Positions 676-10,119 of a stretch of 14,031 bases of DNA are shown here, one piece after another; within the stretch, counting starts at the first letter, position 1; every line of letters starts with the position of its first letter. The position numbers and the translations under genes are program-made. Source of the DNA: Promethearchaeota archaeon (GTDB taxonomy: Archaea; Asgardarchaeota; Lokiarchaeia; Sigyniarchaeales; SOKP01); NCBI GenBank assembly GCA_011364925.1, contig RDOA01000067.1, positions 1 through 14,031 on the forward strand, given 5' to 3'. The notes beneath the pieces were generated by a model that did no database searches, was not told where the DNA came from, and worked only from the letters and a program-made list of their open reading frames with translations.

Positions 676-2025
676 TTATTTTCTGATAGAGTTTATATAT
701 TTTTCAATTGAGATTACAGGTTCAAATTTAGGAATTTCACCTTGTCTGTTTTTTACCCAGCGTAATTCTTCTTTAATATCAGCTTTCATCTTATCTCTAA
801 ATTGAAACTGTTTTAATCTAAAAAATCTCAACGTAAATTTATAGAATTTTATCGCTTGTTTTCCTAGTTCCAATTTGGTTAAAACTTTCGCTAAATTCCA
901 ATAATAAAAGAAATCATCTCTATATAGCTTAATCGCTTCTAAAAATCTGTTATGTGCTGCTTTGTATTTTCCAAGGTAAGCCTCCTTAATCCCTTTATAA
1001 AAATAATCTAGTGATTTCTGCCTAATAATTTCAAAAGAAAAAAAGCTAATCTCGCCATCCTTGATATCTTCAGACATTACTTTAAGCCTTTCTATTATTT
1101 CAGCTCGTTCTTCTGCAGACTGGTTAATTTTCGTAATAATACCTCTACCAAACGATTCAATTGAAGAAAAAGCAATTTTTTGGGTTCCTGGTTGGAGAGG
1201 TACTTTCTTTAAAGAATTCAATAATATGTTTGGAAATTTTAAATCAATCAATAATTCAACAGTATTACGAATGACTTTCATTTCCTTCTCAGAAAGAAAA
1301 GCTTGATTTTTGAGTCCATCTAAAAAAAATATCAGAAATTTAGGGGATTTTATTGCAATTTCATTTAATATCTCGAAAACAGAACTCTTATTATCGATTT
1401 GCTCTAGTTTTAACAATTCTGATGCAAATTTCGATATTAAATCATCTTGCTCTTTTGTGATAAACGAATCAGTAAAATCGATGTAATTATTCACGAGCAT
1501 CGACTTTCGAATTTTAGTTATCAATTGAAAGAAACTAAGGGGATAACTCTCGCTAAGTTTATTGCATTCAAATCTGATTGAAGGAATAGATTCGTTGTTA
1601 TAATAGAAATCTGTAGAGATGGCTTTAAATCCCGCGTTGGACAATAGTTCTTTTAATAGAAAAGGCGGAAAGCAAATTTTATGCTGCAATCCTTTATGAG
1701 GTACTCCAAAAAACCACCCTAAAATATCTTTTTTCTGTTCTTCGCTTGCTTTTAGATAATGTTGGCACGCTTTTTCAAGATCAGGAGTTTCAATAATGAG
1801 CTTCCCATTAGGTTTCAATACTCTAAAAAACTCGCTCAATGCGTAAATCGTTTCAAAAAAACTTAAGTGTTCAATTACGTGTATAGCTTTAATTTCCTCG
1901 CAACTAAAGTCGTCAAATTCGAGGTTTAAAGCGGACATCTGTCTATCAGCAACTAAATCTTCGTATAAGTCAATGTTACAATAATCTGGGTCGTATTTTT
2001 TGCCACAACCGATATTAAGTTTCAT
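676..2025 (-). CDS. Class I SAM-dependent methyltransferase domain fused to a helical region and C-terminal TPR-like repeats
   Basis: N-terminal KLNIGCG (motif I), NID, HVIEHL and RVLKPNGKLIIETPD are typical of Methyltransf_11-like domains. C-terminal YFYKG..YKAAHNRFLEAIKL..YYWNLAKVL..AIKFY fits a TPR pattern (about 820-1005). Start overlaps the stop of the upstream 78-aa gene (ATGA, 2022-2025). Confidence 0.85.
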   Translation of the reverse strand: MKLNIGCGKKYDPDYCNIDLYEDLVADRQMSALNLEFDDFSCEEIKAIHVIEHLSFFETIYALSEFFRVLKPNGKLIIETPDLEKACQHYLKASEEQKKDILGWFFGVPHKGLQHKICFPPFLLKELLSNAGFKAISTDFYYNNESIPSIRFECNKLSESYPLSFFQLITKIRKSMLVNNYIDFTDSFITKEQDDLISKFASELLKLEQIDNKSSVFEILNEIAIKSPKFLIFFLDGLKNQAFLSEKEMKVIRNTVELLIDLKFPNILLNSLKKVPLQPGTQKIAFSSIESFGRGIITKINQSAEERAEIIERLKVMSEDIKDGEISFFSFEIIRQKSLDYFYKGIKEAYLGKYKAAHNRFLEAIKLYRDDFFYYWNLAKVLTKLELGKQAIKFYKFTLRFFRLKQFQFRDKMKADIKEELRWVKNRQGEIPKFEPVISIEKYINSIRK

Positions 2026-2258
2026 CTTTTCTTATCAAAGTCTTTTAATTTTACAGTTGAATACCTTGATCCAGTTGGATATGTGTTGCTTATTGCCGAT
2101 TCAACGAGCAATATTATAAAATAACCAAATGTAAAGAAAATAATAACTAAGATAATAGTAAATATAACTTTGTTCCGAGTATTATCTAAAAATAAGACTC
2201 TTATTATATCTTTGTTAGTTAATCCTAATTCTCTTCCTAATTTAAACAATTGATACAT
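2022..2258 (-). CDS. 78-aa single-TM microprotein, paralog of 2307-2561; putative radical SAM/methyltransferase substrate
   Basis: Ungapped alignment to the 84-aa neighbour gives 35/78 identities by hand count. Central hydrophobic stretch, ATGA coupling to the methyltransferase. The substrate role is inferred from gene context. Confidence 0.8.
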   Translation of the reverse strand: MYQLFKLGRELGLTNKDIIRVLFLDNTRNKVIFTIILVIIFFTFGYFIILLVESAISNTYPTGSRYSTVKLKDFDKKR

Positions 2259-2306
2259 TTCTCTTGTTAATTTACCGTTGATGATTTTTAATTAAATATT
2301 ATAACT

Positions 2307-2561
2307 TTACTTTTTACCTTTATCTTTGAAGTCCTTCGTTTTTACAGTAGAGTACAATGCTCCGGCAGGATACGCATTTCTAGCGACTACAATTACTACA
2401 AAGACAATTATTATTCCAGTTAAGACGATAGCTATTATCAAAAGAATCGTATACAGCGTTGGGTTCTTAGTGTTGTTAAAAAGCAGTACATTCCTTATTT
2501 CTTTTCTATTTAATCCTAATTCTTTGCCGATTTTGACTAATTGAAAGAGATTTTCAAACAT
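2307..2561 (-). CDS. 84-aa single-TM microprotein, paralog of 2022-2258; putative radical SAM/methyltransferase substrate
   Basis: GGAGGT SD 9 nt before the ATG, start 34 nt downstream of the radical SAM stop, shared QLxKxGxELGL and NxYPxGxxYSTVKxKDF motifs with the neighbour. Confidence 0.85.
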   Translation of the reverse strand: MFENLFQLVKIGKELGLNRKEIRNVLLFNNTKNPTLYTILLIIAIVLTGIIIVFVVIVVARNAYPAGALYSTVKTKDFKDKGKK

Positions 2562-2570
2562 ATTTGGGAT

Positions 2571-2576
2571 ACCTCC
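2571..2576 (-). promoter_or_regulatory. Shine-Dalgarno GGAGGT for the 84-aa microprotein
   Basis: Minus strand reads AAATGGAGGTATCCCAAATATG, a 9-nt spacer to the ATG at 2561. Confidence 0.75.
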
Positions 2577-2595: not shown

Positions 2596-3699
2596 TCATT
2601 TGAATCTTATTGTGTGTAGCATACTTTTCATTAATGAAACGGTTGAATCCAATTTTCCTTTGATTGGTAAGTGCTTGGATGAAATTAATTGATCTTCAAT
2701 TGCTCTTAAACAGTATGGCTCGTCAAATTCCTTTATCGCATAGGCTGTTCCCAAGCATCCTCCTTGACATAGATTTACTACATCACAATCAGCGCAATAT
2801 CCTTTTAGTTGTATTTTTTTTGTTCTCAACTTTCTCAAAATGGATTTTAAACTCTGAGTTCTAATGTTTCCTCCAATAAATTCGTCTGGGAGCGTTAGAC
2901 ATCCTTTGATATTTCCATTACTCTGAATACCTAAGACAGATTTTCCCGCTTGACATCCAACCCATGGACTTAATCCTAAATTTGGTAAAAACCTTGAGTA
3001 ATGCCCGAGGCAATGGGCGCCGATAACTGGTAATCTTTTAAAAGAATATTTTTTAGTATTGATAGCAATGAACAAAGCTACTGTGTAAAATTCTTCTCTA
3101 GAAATCGTTAATTCTCTTGGAAACCGTCCTATAGGGACTGTCGTTTGAATTTGCCAAGCAATATTTCGATCTAATAATAAATTTTTAATTTTATTTAGTT
3201 CATACAAATTTATTTTGCTAACTGAAGTAATTACACTGACTGAGAATCTTTCGGCTTTTAAACAGTTAATCGCATTTATTGTTTTTTCAAATGCACCTGG
3301 TATGCCTCTAAGATAATCGTGAACTTTTGCAGTACCCCCGTCTAAACTTAGTGAAACGCATTCAGGCTTTAATTTTTTTAACTTTTGCAGATTGTCAATT
3401 AGATTTAATCCATTGGTAACAATTGACAAATCAAGCCTGTTTTTTTTAATCTCTTTTGCAATTTCATACCAATCGTCTCTAACTAACGGCTCTCCCCCCA
3501 TTAAAGCAACTCCCTTATACCCACAATCACGGATATCTCTGACTAAATTCAATGATTCCTCCGTATTCAGCTCATCATGGCGAATCTTTCCTGCTTTTGA
3601 TCCGCAATGAATGCATTTACTATTGCATCTTAAAGTTATCTCCCAAACTGCACAGCTGGGTTTAATTATCTGAGAAATTAATGGAGTTATACTTGGCAA
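2596..3699 (-). CDS. Radical SAM protein with C-terminal SPASM domain
   Basis: CxxxCxxC (CNSKCIHC), GGEP, VSLSLDG..HDYLRG. SPASM cysteines Cx12Gx4C (CQAGKSVLGIQSNGNIKGC) and Cx2Cx5Cx3Cx14C (CADCDVVNLCQGGC...PYC). An in-frame TAA two codons upstream makes TTG 3699 the earliest possible start. Confidence 0.95.
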   Translation of the reverse strand: MPSITPLISQIIKPSCAVWEITLRCNSKCIHCGSKAGKIRHDELNTEESLNLVRDIRDCGYKGVALMGGEPLVRDDWYEIAKEIKKNRLDLSIVTNGLNLIDNLQKLKKLKPECVSLSLDGGTAKVHDYLRGIPGAFEKTINAINCLKAERFSVSVITSVSKINLYELNKIKNLLLDRNIAWQIQTTVPIGRFPRELTISREEFYTVALFIAINTKKYSFKRLPVIGAHCLGHYSRFLPNLGLSPWVGCQAGKSVLGIQSNGNIKGCLTLPDEFIGGNIRTQSLKSILRKLRTKKIQLKGYCADCDVVNLCQGGCLGTAYAIKEFDEPYCLRAIEDQLISSKHLPIKGKLDSTVSLMKSMLHTIRFK

Positions 3700-3814: not shown

Positions 3815-4708
3815 TTAAGAAGAATCGCAATCTATAGGCCACTCAAGTAGCGAAATTATTAGATTCTTGTGAGACAATCCTCCTCGCGTTAGAGTCCCTA
3901 TAAAACTTTCCCTTTTGAACATTTTCTTTAAGATGTACCTTAAAAGTTGCGTATTTGATAACCTTCTTTCTTCAGCCTCGACTCTAAGTTTATGGATCTT
4001 AATATGCATGCTTTTAATCTCATCTATTCTATCTTTTAAAAAGGATCTTCCTTTAAATACTCCATTTCCGGAAGTGAAGAGAAGTAACTTATCCATTCCC
4101 TCTGTAAAGTCGTGCAATTTCTTAATCGATCGATATATCAAAGAAATATTTTCGGGAATGTCTGTATCCTTGCCGAATATCATTTGATATTTTGGCATTA
4201 CTGCGTCGGCGATAAATGCCCACTGGTGTTTCCGTTCGATTAGACTAATTTGTTCGGGAGCGTGTCCTGGCGTAGCAATTACATCAAAACAATATTTACC
4301 AGATTTGGTGTTAATTATATCTTCTAATGGTTCCGCTTGAAATGGTTGATAATTTATTCCCCAGACCATTTGACGATAGTCAGGGTAAATCTTTTCTTTT
4401 TTTAATAGAGGAATAGCCTGTTTGCTAGCAAAAACGGGGATATTAAACTCTTCTTGGAGCATACGACCTCCTCCGCAGTGATCTTCGTGATTATGGGTTA
4501 TAACGCATTTTTCAACCGCATTATTAGAATCAAGAGCCTTAATAAAATCTCGCAGGTCTCCTACTCCTCCTGGCGCACCCGCGTCAACTAACAATCCGTC
4601 AATTAAAAACACAGAGGTCCAGAACGGTTGAGGCATTAATTCGCTGTCTGAAGACCATTTCCATTCTAAAATTTCATTGTTGCAGTGATATACCTTTTGA
4701 ACAACCAT
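3815..4708 (-). CDS. Metallo-beta-lactamase fold hydrolase
   Basis: LLVDAG, HxHxDH (THNHEDH), TPGH and FIADA motifs. ATG 4708 (MVVQKV) preferred over the TTG at 4726 in the ORF track; start uncertain. Confidence 0.88.
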   Translation of the reverse strand: MVVQKVYHCNNEILEWKWSSDSELMPQPFWTSVFLIDGLLVDAGAPGGVGDLRDFIKALDSNNAVEKCVITHNHEDHCGGGRMLQEEFNIPVFASKQAIPLLKKEKIYPDYRQMVWGINYQPFQAEPLEDIINTKSGKYCFDVIATPGHAPEQISLIERKHQWAFIADAVMPKYQMIFGKDTDIPENISLIYRSIKKLHDFTEGMDKLLLFTSGNGVFKGRSFLKDRIDEIKSMHIKIHKLRVEAEERRLSNTQLLRYILKKMFKRESFIGTLTRGGLSHKNLIISLLEWPIDCDSS

Positions 4709-4859
4709 ATAATCAGCATAAAACAAAATTAAGAATCCAAATTAAATCTATTTCAAATTTATTTCCATACATAACAATAATTTAATTGCTTTTCTGATTA
4801 GAAAGTGTTATATGTTTACAAAATGAAATAGTGATATTGACCGAAATGAAGATAACACT

Positions 4860-7735: not shown

Positions 7736-8110
7736 CTATTCAAGTCCTATTTTTGCGGTGTATTTAACTAAAAGGAAGATAACAAACGCCACAATAATGA
7801 ACGTTATCAAATCTCCTATAAACGCACCAACTCTAAATGGTCCTACAACAAATGCCTCCCACTGGAATCCTGTAGGTGTAAAAAATTGAACAATAGGCAT
7901 AATTAAATTATCTACAAGCGATTTAACTAATGCACCGAGATATACGCCCATTATGAAAGCAACAGCAAGGCCTAGTACTTTATATTTCTTAATGAAATCT
8001 TTAAACTCCATCAATAAGTTTTTCTTTTTCTCTGGTTCCGGTGGAGGTGATGTGGGTGCTAATGCCTCTCTTATCTTTTTTAATTCTTCCAAAATTTCCA
8101 TATCTGACAT
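7736..8110 (-). CDS. mscL: Large-conductance mechanosensitive channel MscL family protein
   Basis: EFKDFI..YKVLGLAVAFIMG..LVKSLVDNLIMPIV (S1 and TM1) and GAFIGDLITFIIVAFVIFLLVK (TM2) match MscL signatures. Confidence 0.92.
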   Translation of the reverse strand: MSDMEILEELKKIREALAPTSPPPEPEKKKNLLMEFKDFIKKYKVLGLAVAFIMGVYLGALVKSLVDNLIMPIVQFFTPTGFQWEAFVVGPFRVGAFIGDLITFIIVAFVIFLLVKYTAKIGLE

Positions 8111-9264: not shown

Positions 9265-10119
9265 ATGAGTAAAGATGGATTTAACAAGTTTAAAGGAGAC
9301 GTGAACACAGATAGGATCAAATACATTGCCGATCCTCAACTGAGAAATATTGTTAATGTTTCTATTGCCTTAGCGCGACCTCTTTTGGTAAAGGGAGAGC
9401 CAGGCACGGGAAAAACTCTTCTTTCTCACGCGATTGCTGAAGCTTTGGGAAAAAGATTAATTGTATGGAATATAAAGAGCACCACAGAAGCGATAGATGG
9501 GTGTTACATGTACGATACAGTCCAAAGATTGAACGACAGCCGTTTTGGGTGCGAAGATCGCAATGTCGACAACATTAAAGATTACATTACTCTTGGACCT
9601 TTAGGCGAAGCGTTTGATTCTGAAGAACAAGTCGTGCTCCTCATCGACGAGATCGATAAAGCCGATATCGAATTCCCTAACGATCTTTTACAAGAATTAG
9701 ATGTTATGGAGTTTTATATTAAAGAAACCAAGGAATTTATTAAAGCGAAGACTCGACCAATCGTTATCATAACCTCCAACAATGAAAAGGAGCTTCCCGA
9801 TGCGTTTCTACGGAGGTGTATTTTCCATTGGATAGAATTTCCCTCAAAAGAGTTCATGGCAGACATATGCAATCTTCACTACCCTGATTTGAAGCAAAAT
9901 CTTTTAGAACAATGCTTAAAACACTTCTACGCGTTAAGAGCAGTAACCAAGTTAAGAAAAATGCCATCAACATCGGAACTTCTCGATTGGATTGGAGTTT
10001 TATTAAAGAGTGGAATTACTTTGGACGAACTAAAAAATGGAATACCATTTCTAGGCGTTCTTCTAAAGAAGGAAAAAGATTTAGAGGTTGCTCTCGAAAA
10101 AATCAAATTTCCTACGTAA
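9265..10119 (+). CDS. MoxR-family AAA+ ATPase
   Basis: Walker A GEPGTGKT, Walker B LLIDEIDKAD, FPNDLLQELD, and ITSNNEKELPDAFLRRC (sensor I and Arg finger). Confidence 0.95.
   Translation: MSKDGFNKFKGDVNTDRIKYIADPQLRNIVNVSIALARPLLVKGEPGTGKTLLSHAIAEALGKRLIVWNIKSTTEAIDGCYMYDTVQRLNDSRFGCEDRNVDNIKDYITLGPLGEAFDSEEQVVLLIDEIDKADIEFPNDLLQELDVMEFYIKETKEFIKAKTRPIVIITSNNEKELPDAFLRRCIFHWIEFPSKEFMADICNLHYPDLKQNLLEQCLKHFYALRAVTKLRKMPSTSELLDWIGVLLKSGITLDELKNGIPFLGVLLKKEKDLEVALEKIKFPT

Follow-up and report, generated by a model that had tools for sequence, protein, structure and literature searches.

Radical-SAM modification of ribosomally made peptides is well known in bacteria. The closest described systems are the spliceotide pathways, of type I (PlpX/PcpX, with PlpY) or binary type II (RhaX/RcsX/RasX), which combine enzymes of family TIGR04103 with XYG precursors. 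XYG is the experimentally established splice site of the spliceases, and a leader helix activates the binary spliceases (PMC11414181, PMC11626197, PMC9811515). Our literature searches found spliceotide pathways described from bacteria only, with no archaeal relative of the spliceases, no natural integral-membrane-protein substrates of such radical-SAM modification, and no description of the Asgard archaeal system reported here.

The window, by which we mean the whole 14,031-nucleotide stretch of Asgard DNA that was analysed, carries a radical SAM/SPASM gene, two tandem small genes and a methyltransferase gene (Table 1). The same combination recurs in each of the 20 loci retrieved from other Asgard genomes, always with a single radical SAM/SPASM enzyme and a single methyltransferase bearing a helical domain; the gene order is rearranged in some of them. 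One to three tandem copies of the small gene accompany each enzyme pair in these 20 loci, and up to five in remoter lineages. Within the home family, small genes and radical SAM gene each occur in 57 of 134 genomes, and these are nearly the same genomes; by shared loci and near-identical genome sets, the small genes are tightly linked to the flanking enzymes. A radical SAM/SPASM enzyme, one to five tandem small genes and a methyltransferase therefore form a conserved cassette, found only in Asgard archaea in these searches. As in RiPP loci, a candidate precursor gene, here with tandem copies, adjoins a dedicated modifying enzyme and co-occurs with it across genomes. Counted by the small-protein profile, the cassette occurs in 77 of 400 Asgard genomes; counted by radical SAM matches at E<=1e-60, it occurs in 107 of 400, although at least one of these matches (locus L065, 37% identity) lacks both small genes and methyltransferase, and we treated it as a different family.

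Table 1. Minus-strand features of the window, with the evidence for each
Feature	Position	Strand	Evidence and remarks
Class I SAM methyltransferase (residues 1-156) with all-helical TPR-like domain (161-448)	676..2025	minus	Pfam; AF2 pLDDT 92; conserved in cassette
Small protein B, paralogue of A	2022..2258	minus	78 aa; family profile match E 3.6e-33
C-terminal Tyr motif of B, residues 59-74	2037..2084	minus	Translation, BLASTP, family conservation
Small protein A	2307..2561	minus	84 aa; ORF and translation; family profile match E 9.9e-44
C-terminal Tyr motif of A, residues 63-78	2328..2375	minus	Y64-P-x-G67-x-x-Y70-S-T-V...D77-F78; proposed modification site
Hydrophobic TM helix of A, residues 34-62	2376..2462	minus	AF2 helix pLDDT 87-96; sequence variable
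N-terminal helix-turn-helix motif of A, residues 5-26	2484..2549	minus	Conservation over 72 members
Radical SAM/SPASM enzyme, proposed maturase	2596..3699	minus	Pfam Radical_SAM and SPASM; ortholog adjoins small genes in 20/20 loci
Metallo-beta-lactamase-fold protein, peripheral, non-core	3815..4726	minus	Pfam Lactamase_B; only in two closest loci, L022 and L023

The two small ORFs had been described in the initial annotation as tandem duplicates, and its figures are exact: an ungapped alignment with residue 1 of B placed on residue 5 of A gives 35/78 identities, with 15 in aligned positions 1-29, 7 in positions 30-57 and 13 in positions 58-78 (by BLASTP, 35/77 identical, E 1e-21). Also where it had placed them are two pairs of repeated DNA words, each at an offset of 291 nucleotides: a 14-mer found at 2219 and 2510 only (0.01 expected by chance) and a 9-mer found at 2049 and 2340 only, the latter weak in that at least two matches also occur in 5 of 200 shuffles. 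The interpretation of these words as remnants of the duplication in the DNA does not stand. Synonymous sites between A and B are near saturation (pS 0.70), and the words code for the conserved ELGL and TVK residues of the two proteins, so that they reflect protein-level constraint; we attribute the repeats to conservation of ELGL and TVK at the codon level and reject duplication remnants. The exact conservation of length that had been claimed likewise holds for the aligned part only (Table 1). A repeat-finding run missed the 14-mer that an exact DNA word search recovers.

Judged by sequence conservation, the two ORFs are real genes of a family that has no existing name, with 27 close clusters; its representative clusters number at least 59 at E<=1e-10 and 150 at E<=1e-3. 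Comparison of the small proteins with Pfam and NCBIfam returned no match except a single chance TM match of 15.7 bits, and the ESM Atlas returned no usable one. Chance open frames in AT-rich DNA, or an artefactual similarity, would be favoured by the 32% G+C of the window, which makes long open frames easy to come by, but this explanation is refuted by the strength of the paralogue match, by homologues in 77 of 400 Asgard genomes, by the conserved context, and by pooled dN/dS values of 0.38 in the N-terminal part, 0.60 in the TM and 0.41 in the C-terminal part, below 1 in all three regions. Direct reading of the sequence adds a GGAGGT 9 nucleotides upstream of the ATG of A (2571..2576, minus strand) and an ATGA at 2022..2025 (minus strand) that holds both the methyltransferase start codon and, overlapping it, the stop codon of B. 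On the three points by which the initial annotation could have been overturned, we thus find purifying selection on the tandem paralogues, homologues in other genomes, and no match to a known membrane-protein family in Pfam, NCBIfam or the ESM Atlas.

To place the radical SAM enzyme, we compared it with curated families. Its best NCBIfam match, TIGR04103, gives 201 bits, far short of the family cut-off of 725, and the same family is the top match for six diverse orthologs (197-219 bits); the other radical SAM/SPASM genes of the same genome score at most 81 bits. Second comes TIGR03913, with which the window enzyme scores 170 bits and the orthologs 157-202, below that family's cut-off of 592 (591.75), followed by weaker matches to MftC (119 bits), WgkB (110 bits) and DynA (70 bits). 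Among plasmid sequences, tblastn ranks highest an Agathobacter radical SAM enzyme with 192 bits and a Nostoc 'nif11-class maturase 3' with 187, then GDL maturases with 166-176; the next tier reaches about 120 bits. In a quick tree search in which only one named splicease was sampled, the Asgard enzymes are sister to a group made up of the Nostoc TIGR04103 enzyme, a Tropicibacter sequence and the GDL enzymes, and the joint clade has an SH-aLRT of 99. Wherever neighbouring genes could be read, this clade is peptide-associated: an LYG site lies at the end of the Nostoc relative's precursor and an MYG site at the end of an unannotated ORF upstream of the Agathobacter gene, and the DUF1843 peptides beside the GDL relatives carry PYG, YA or YM sites. 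By these comparisons, the cassette is related to the bacterial tyrosine-excising spliceases. A PDB sequence search with the enzyme found distant radical SAM cores only, such as 7tol at E 8.6e-6. An in-frame TGA in some radical SAM matches was considered as a selenocysteine codon; the one case checked (L039) is an ordinary stop codon.

For the methyltransferase, a Foldseek search with the predicted model returned generic class I methyltransferases only, with no target indicated, and a PDB sequence search returned nothing. A scan of the window for sigma-70 promoters and terminators gave counts at shuffle level and is uninformative for an archaeon.

Small protein A is predicted to consist of an N-terminal helical hairpin, one TM helix and a disordered C-terminal tail, as its AF2 model has helices at residues 2-14, 19-26 and 34-62 and a tail pLDDT of 54-65. 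Across 72 members of the family, G12 of the N-terminal motif is invariant and G16, L17 and E21 are at least 95% conserved; in the tail, Y64 and Y70 are invariant (72/72), G67 is conserved in 71/72; at position 71, 65 members have S and 7 have G. The two small proteins of the window have the sites L-Y-S and R-Y-S, and the X-Y-G splice motif is not present in them. Column entropies in the TM are high. The family profile therefore agrees with the original description of two conserved ends and a drifting hydrophobic centre. That centre is 25 residues long in 43 of the 72 members, with a range of 24-33. Both of its flanks have many K/R residues (net about +3 N-terminal of the helix and about +5 C-terminal of it), so the membrane sidedness of the tail is not fixed by charge, and the topology problem raised from the window sequence is a real one.

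Remoter Asgard lineages have the same enzyme pair with small proteins of roughly three TM helices. In these relatives the stretch from one Tyr motif to the other is longer by about 77 residues and contains as many as two additional hydrophobic segments. All 26 of them keep YP and the C-terminal Y without exception, and the N-terminal motif of A aligns with theirs (hhalign, probability 75%, E 2.7e-5). One lineage has three TM-less peptides of 46-65 residues between the orthologous radical SAM and methyltransferase genes, which keep only the Tyr motifs (YP and a C-terminal xYG) and have neither a TM nor the N-terminal motif. Most of the remoter cassette substrates carry Y-G near the C-terminus. 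TM-less, one-TM and roughly three-TM forms alike have kept only Y-P and a Y with a small residue, mostly G, after it; the universal core of the family is therefore the Tyr motifs, whereas the membrane segment and its length are no part of that core. The proposal of selection on the exact spacing of the motifs is rejected in view of the 24-33-residue centre and of the multi-TM and TM-less relatives. Its companion, selection on both flanking motifs, holds in that both are conserved, but they are not of equal rank: the Tyr motifs are universal and the N-terminal helix is confined to TM-bearing forms.

These comparisons bear on what the small proteins do. The best explanation, and a probable one on present sequence evidence, is that they are ribosomally made, RiPP-like membrane-anchored substrates of the adjacent radical SAM/SPASM enzyme and methyltransferase, modified at Tyr. 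We consider it unlikely that they are instead membrane anchors or scaffolds that recruit the two enzymes to a lipid or other membrane component. Such a role would account for a TM helix joined to a conserved, cytoplasm-type helical hairpin and would suit the TPR-like domain of the methyltransferase, which could bind a partner; archaeal lipid-modifying radical SAM enzymes also exist, one being the distant PDB match 7tol. An anchor would not, however, be expected to be replaced in the same position by TM-less peptides that keep only the Tyr motifs, to vary from one to five copies per enzyme pair, or to have its invariant residues in a disordered tail and its least conserved part in the TM, and the enzyme clade is otherwise associated with peptides.

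Small single-pass membrane proteins beside RiPP enzymes are sometimes immunity factors. An immunity, export or sensing role for a different, unrecognised cassette product would follow that precedent, and our search for other precursors was non-exhaustive; still, in the loci examined the enzymes have no further conserved small ORF beside them, TM-less forms cannot serve as membrane immunity proteins, and the Tyr motifs parallel sites in the precursors of related enzymes, which together make such a role very improbable.

If the small proteins are substrates, as we favour, the nature of the chemistry can be put forward only tentatively. Splicease-type tyramine excision is the leading candidate, and is a possibility to be held with reserve, as the window copies have Y-S and not Y-G. 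Similarly tentative is the fuller proposal that the Asgard membrane-anchored proteins, with one or about three TM helices, and their TM-less cousins are spliceotide-like substrates whose product is then methylated by the dedicated methyltransferase. It is also possible, with similar reserve, that the same substrates undergo another Tyr chemistry, namely a C-C or C-O cross-link from Tyr to a side chain, Tyr oxidation or epimerisation, with the methyltransferase capping the product. The Y-S-T of the window copies, the presence of two invariant Tyr where one would suffice, the sister relationship of the Asgard enzymes to the spliceases, their scores far short of the equivalog cut-off, and the aromatic cross-linking SPASM enzymes among the weaker matches (WgkB, DynA and MftC) all speak for such a chemistry. 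Against it, the named enzymes that come closest in score and in the tree are spliceases and GDL maturases rather than cross-linking families, and x-Y-G stands near the C-terminus both in most remoter substrates and in the peptide beside the closest bacterial relative.

In the mechanism that we propose for a substrate role, the radical SAM enzyme would act in the cytoplasm on Tyr70, and perhaps also Tyr64, of the C-terminal tail. Modification would probably precede or accompany post-translational membrane insertion, since a protein of 84 aa has little of its TM released from the ribosome at the end of translation; if the tail ends outside the cell, a cytoplasmic Fe-S enzyme would have to act before insertion. 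The N-terminal hairpin of the TM-bearing forms may serve in recognition or chaperoning, for which the leader helix of binary spliceotide precursors is a precedent, and the methyltransferase would add a methyl group to the product. Neighbouring genes were compared by BLAST with the window proteins only, and in that comparison no leader peptidase, other protease or exporter with a counterpart in the window recurred in the other loci; the product is thus probably not a classical released RiPP and would probably stay in the membrane as a modified protein.

Should the spliceotide-like reading be true, this would be the first system of its kind from archaea and the first whose natural substrates are integral membrane proteins, and an electrophilic warhead or a modified tag would come to lie at the cell surface. 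Splicing, if that is the chemistry, would extend backbone beta-amino-acid formation to archaea and to membrane proteins. The series of TM-less, one-TM and roughly three-TM substrates allows one to ask which features the enzyme recognises, whether processing at Y-S sites resembles that at Y-G sites, and how a cytoplasmic, oxygen-sensitive enzyme handles a membrane-destined substrate.

Among known systems, MftC, the PqqE-type enzymes, WgkB and DynA, peptide maturases that modify Tyr or aromatic residues, resemble the Asgard enzyme in combining radical SAM and SPASM domains; their target is a short, conserved motif at the C-terminus of a protein encoded by a small gene. They are more distant (70-119 bits, and about 120 by tblastn), lie outside the clade of the Asgard, splicease and GDL enzymes, and use RRE/PqqD partners that are missing from the Asgard cassette; indeed, none of the conserved cassette genes was recognised as PqqD-like.

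The spliceases share with the Asgard enzymes a radical SAM/SPASM architecture without an N-terminal RRE domain, the best-scoring curated family and the well-supported joint clade. The substrates are alike in being encoded by tandem small genes, with an invariant Tyr and a small residue near the C-terminus (G in most remoter Asgard homologues), and the N-terminal helix of the Asgard substrate could match the activating leader helix of the binary spliceases (PMC11414181). Unlike the spliceases, the Asgard enzymes fall far short of the TIGR04103 cut-off and form a sister clade rather than lying inside the group. In contrast to spliceotide systems, the Asgard system is archaeal, its substrates have one to three TM helices (except in the TM-less lineage) and neither a Nif11 nor an NHLP leader, there is no PlpY gene, the window copies have Y-S in place of XYG, and a methyltransferase with a helical domain accompanies the radical SAM enzyme in nearly every locus examined.

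The GDL-motif system (TIGR03913 with DUF1843), on the chemistry of which our literature search found no paper, lies in the same clade and gives the second-best curated score. The window proteins differ from its peptides in having no DUF1843 or other Pfam match and no GDL motif (Y-X10-GDL), and no homology was detectable between the window methyltransferase and that of the Aureibacter GDL locus. Like the Asgard cassette, however, the GDL system has tandem small genes for peptides in which G, A or M comes after a Tyr, and the Aureibacter locus, with three peptides, a radical SAM enzyme and a class I methyltransferase, has the same three-part architecture.

The small genes A and B lie on one strand in the order metallo-beta-lactamase-fold gene, radical SAM/SPASM gene (rSAM), A, B, methyltransferase. 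GGAGGT precedes A; B ends and the methyltransferase begins within a shared ATGA, in which stop and start codons overlap.

Coordinates of the cassette genes, of three nearby window genes and of the tandem ORFs in a remoter Asgard locus
Feature	Position	Strand	Description
Metallo-beta-lactamase-fold gene	3815-4726	minus	directly upstream of rSAM
rSAM	2596-3699	minus	radical SAM/SPASM gene
Small gene A	2307-2561	minus	ORF, 84 aa
Small gene B	2022-2258	minus	ORF, 78 aa
Methyltransferase	676-2025	minus	class I SAM methyltransferase with ~290 residues of helical, TPR-like domain
MscL-like gene	7736-8110	minus
284-aa ORF	9265-10119	plus
Three tandem TM-less ORFs	L052:6021-6534 (G128:C11)	minus	65, 54 and 46 aa; between orthologous rSAM and methyltransferase

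The two proteins match by BLASTP at E 1e-21. A recount reproduced exactly the 35/78 ungapped identities of the initial annotation (with the first residue of B set against residue 5 of A), as well as their division into 15, 7 and 13 over positions 1-29, 30-57 and 58-78. The exact length conservation also claimed there applies to the aligned part alone (the proteins measure 84 and 78 aa), and the reading of shared DNA words as remnants of a duplication does not hold. A 14-mer at 2219 and 2510 and a 9-mer at 2049 and 2340 each recur at an offset of 291 nt and at no other place, the 9-mer pair being weak taken alone (at least two matches in 5 of 200 shuffles too). These words code for the conserved ELGL and TVK residues, and synonymous differences between A and B are near saturation (pS 0.70); the words are therefore maintained by selection on the protein, not left over from duplication.

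The small genes are genuine, and their family has no name. A word-indexed search returned 27 close clusters, one labelled Candidatus Hermodarchaeota and none with a Pfam domain, and an exhaustive profile search returned 150 representative clusters at E<=1e-3, 59 of them at E<=1e-10; the small proteins matched nothing in Pfam, NCBIfam or the ESM Atlas. Matches occur in 77 of the 400 genomes searched from the phylum, chiefly in the family to which the window belongs (57/134), usually with one to four tandem copies. Over 72 non-identical members, G12, Y64 and Y70 (numbering of A) are invariant, G16, L17, E21, G67, D77 and F78 are conserved in at least 95%, position 71 is S in 65 and G in 7, and the hydrophobic-centre columns have high entropy, bearing out the description of conserved ends with a drifting centre. 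Pooled Nei-Gojobori dN/dS, a check proposed at the outset, is below 1 in all three parts (0.38 in the N part, 0.60 in the centre, 0.41 in the C part), these being rough figures from non-independent pairs with high dS. The AlphaFold2 model, built on a 56-sequence alignment, has a hairpin of helices 2-14 and 19-26, a single long helix at 34-62, then an unstructured low-confidence tail.

The family travels with its neighboring enzymes. An rSAM ortholog, one to three small genes and a methyltransferase ortholog occur together in all 20 loci taken from other genomes (each up to ~19 kb), sometimes in shuffled order, such as small gene, methyltransferase, rSAM, small gene. Across the home family, genomes with small genes and genomes with the rSAM form nearly identical sets (57/134 each), the mismatches being contig-end fragments and three weak small-protein matches. 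Among the 20 loci, the metallo-beta-lactamase-fold gene recurs solely in the two closest, L022 and L023. The MscL-like gene and the 284-aa ORF lie close to the cassette in a number of related genomes (L022, L030, L031 and L035), which suggests local synteny, not a functional link.

The rSAM and methyltransferase pair extends to other Asgard families, at 38-51% rSAM identity, beside one to five adjacent tandem small genes encoding three kinds of protein. The first kind has one TM and a longer N-terminus. Proteins of the second kind measure 137-192 aa, contain two or three hydrophobic segments and retain a related helix motif at the N-terminus (hhalign probability 75%, E 2.7e-5). In them a Y-P directly behind the first TM is invariant, and so is a Tyr close to the C-terminus, where the sequence most often reads Y-G-V-Y/F and in some cases Y-S, Y-D or Y-N. 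The third, the L052 ORFs, lacks both hydrophobic segment and N-terminal helix and retains just G-Y-P and, beyond a K/E/P-rich linker, x-Y-G-V-Y at the C-terminus; these peptides would be the easiest substrates for in vitro testing. As judged from sequence, what all forms of the family share is a pair of Tyr motifs, adjacent in the window proteins (Y64-P...Y70-S); the presence and length of the membrane segment, like the N-terminal helix, vary from form to form as modules. Selection on motif spacing, as initially proposed, is not borne out, as the centre ranges from 24 to 33 residues (25 in 43 of 72 members) and TM count and N-terminal helix vary among relatives. The small proteins might instead be mere membrane anchors for the enzymes; against this, the Tyr motifs are universal while the membrane segment is variable, and absent in the L052 ORFs. 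In the lineage of locus L054, the rSAM adjoins another class I methyltransferase, of 206 aa and on the opposite strand (L054:5877-6497, G001:C5), which takes the place of the helical-domain methyltransferase.

At the level of sequence, the rSAM is shown to be a relative of peptide maturases directed at Tyr. In NCBIfam, the window enzyme and each of five diverse orthologs match TIGR04103 best (nif11-class peptide radical SAM maturase 3, which is the PlpX splicease family; 197-219 bits) and TIGR03913 second (GDL-motif peptide maturase; 157-202 bits), with scores far under the curated thresholds (725 and 592, respectively). On TIGR04103, no other rSAM/SPASM gene in the genome of the window enzyme exceeds 81 bits. 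Searching plasmids by tblastn placed an Agathobacter rSAM (192 bits), a Nostoc TIGR04103 enzyme (187) and GDL maturases (166-176) in the best tier, and a second tier including MftC and TIGR04053 near 120 bits. A quick IQ-TREE analysis of 44 sequences, in which characterised enzymes were thinly sampled, groups the Asgard enzymes with a TIGR04133 sequence on a long branch and the Agathobacter rSAM, and this group is sister to one comprising the Nostoc splicease (the one named splicease), Tropicibacter and GDL enzymes (joint clade SH-aLRT 99; Asgard rows on one side of a branch, support 78). Some rSAM matches (f31 genomes) were flagged with one internal TGA, a candidate selenocysteine; in the one case checked (L039:6302-6304) it is the natural stop codon, which the alignment overruns by a few codons.

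We thus describe a conserved three-part cassette with invariant Tyr motifs in a predicted disordered tail, whose tandem, variable-copy small genes probably encode the substrates. The rSAM would modify Y70 and perhaps Y64, and the methyltransferase, in Foldseek a generic class I enzyme and no more, would methylate some position. The N-terminal hairpin, the methyltransferase helical domain or both may handle the hydrophobic substrate before insertion. Mean charges are 7.2 K/R and 4.0 D/E on the N side of the TM and 6.5 K/R and 1.8 D/E on the C side. With its length, basic charge and helical form, the N-terminus favours a putative N-in orientation; the Tyr tail would then lie outside, so modification would be needed before insertion, which is plausible for an 84-aa protein. 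BLAST comparison of neighbours with the window proteins shows no protease or exporter recurring in the other 20 loci, for which reason the product may remain a membrane protein. The leading candidate for the reaction, itself less likely than not, is splicease-type chemistry; the window copies carry Y-S, not Y-G.

The cassette differs from TIGR04103 and TIGR03913 in every testable feature of membership, namely score, motif in this window, leader or partner, and the literature searched holds no published description of it. Among bacterial enzymes, the rSAM has its nearest relative on Agathobacter rectalis plasmid NZ_CP143948.1. An MFS transporter gene follows the gene of that relative, and an unannotated small ORF (L069:3707-3913) with an M-Y-G-T site at its end directly precedes it; this locus may be an undescribed bacterial cousin. 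Sites of a similar kind occur in peptides next to other relatives of the enzyme: the Nostoc Nif11 precursor has a terminal L-Y-G site, and DUF1843 peptides have P-Y-G, Y-A or Y-M sites. On Aureibacter tunicatorum plasmid pAT1 (L070:2204-4974), three tandem DUF1843 (GDL-motif) genes, an rSAM and a class I SAM methyltransferase form a three-part architecture like that of the Asgard cassette, with no similarity between the two methyltransferases detectable by BLAST. In binary splicease systems a helix in the precursor leader activates the enzyme; for recognition by PlpXY a short tag in the core is enough, with no need of the leader (PMC11414181, PMC11626197, PMC9811515). The Asgard system would work in a like manner to such spliceotide and RiPP cassettes.
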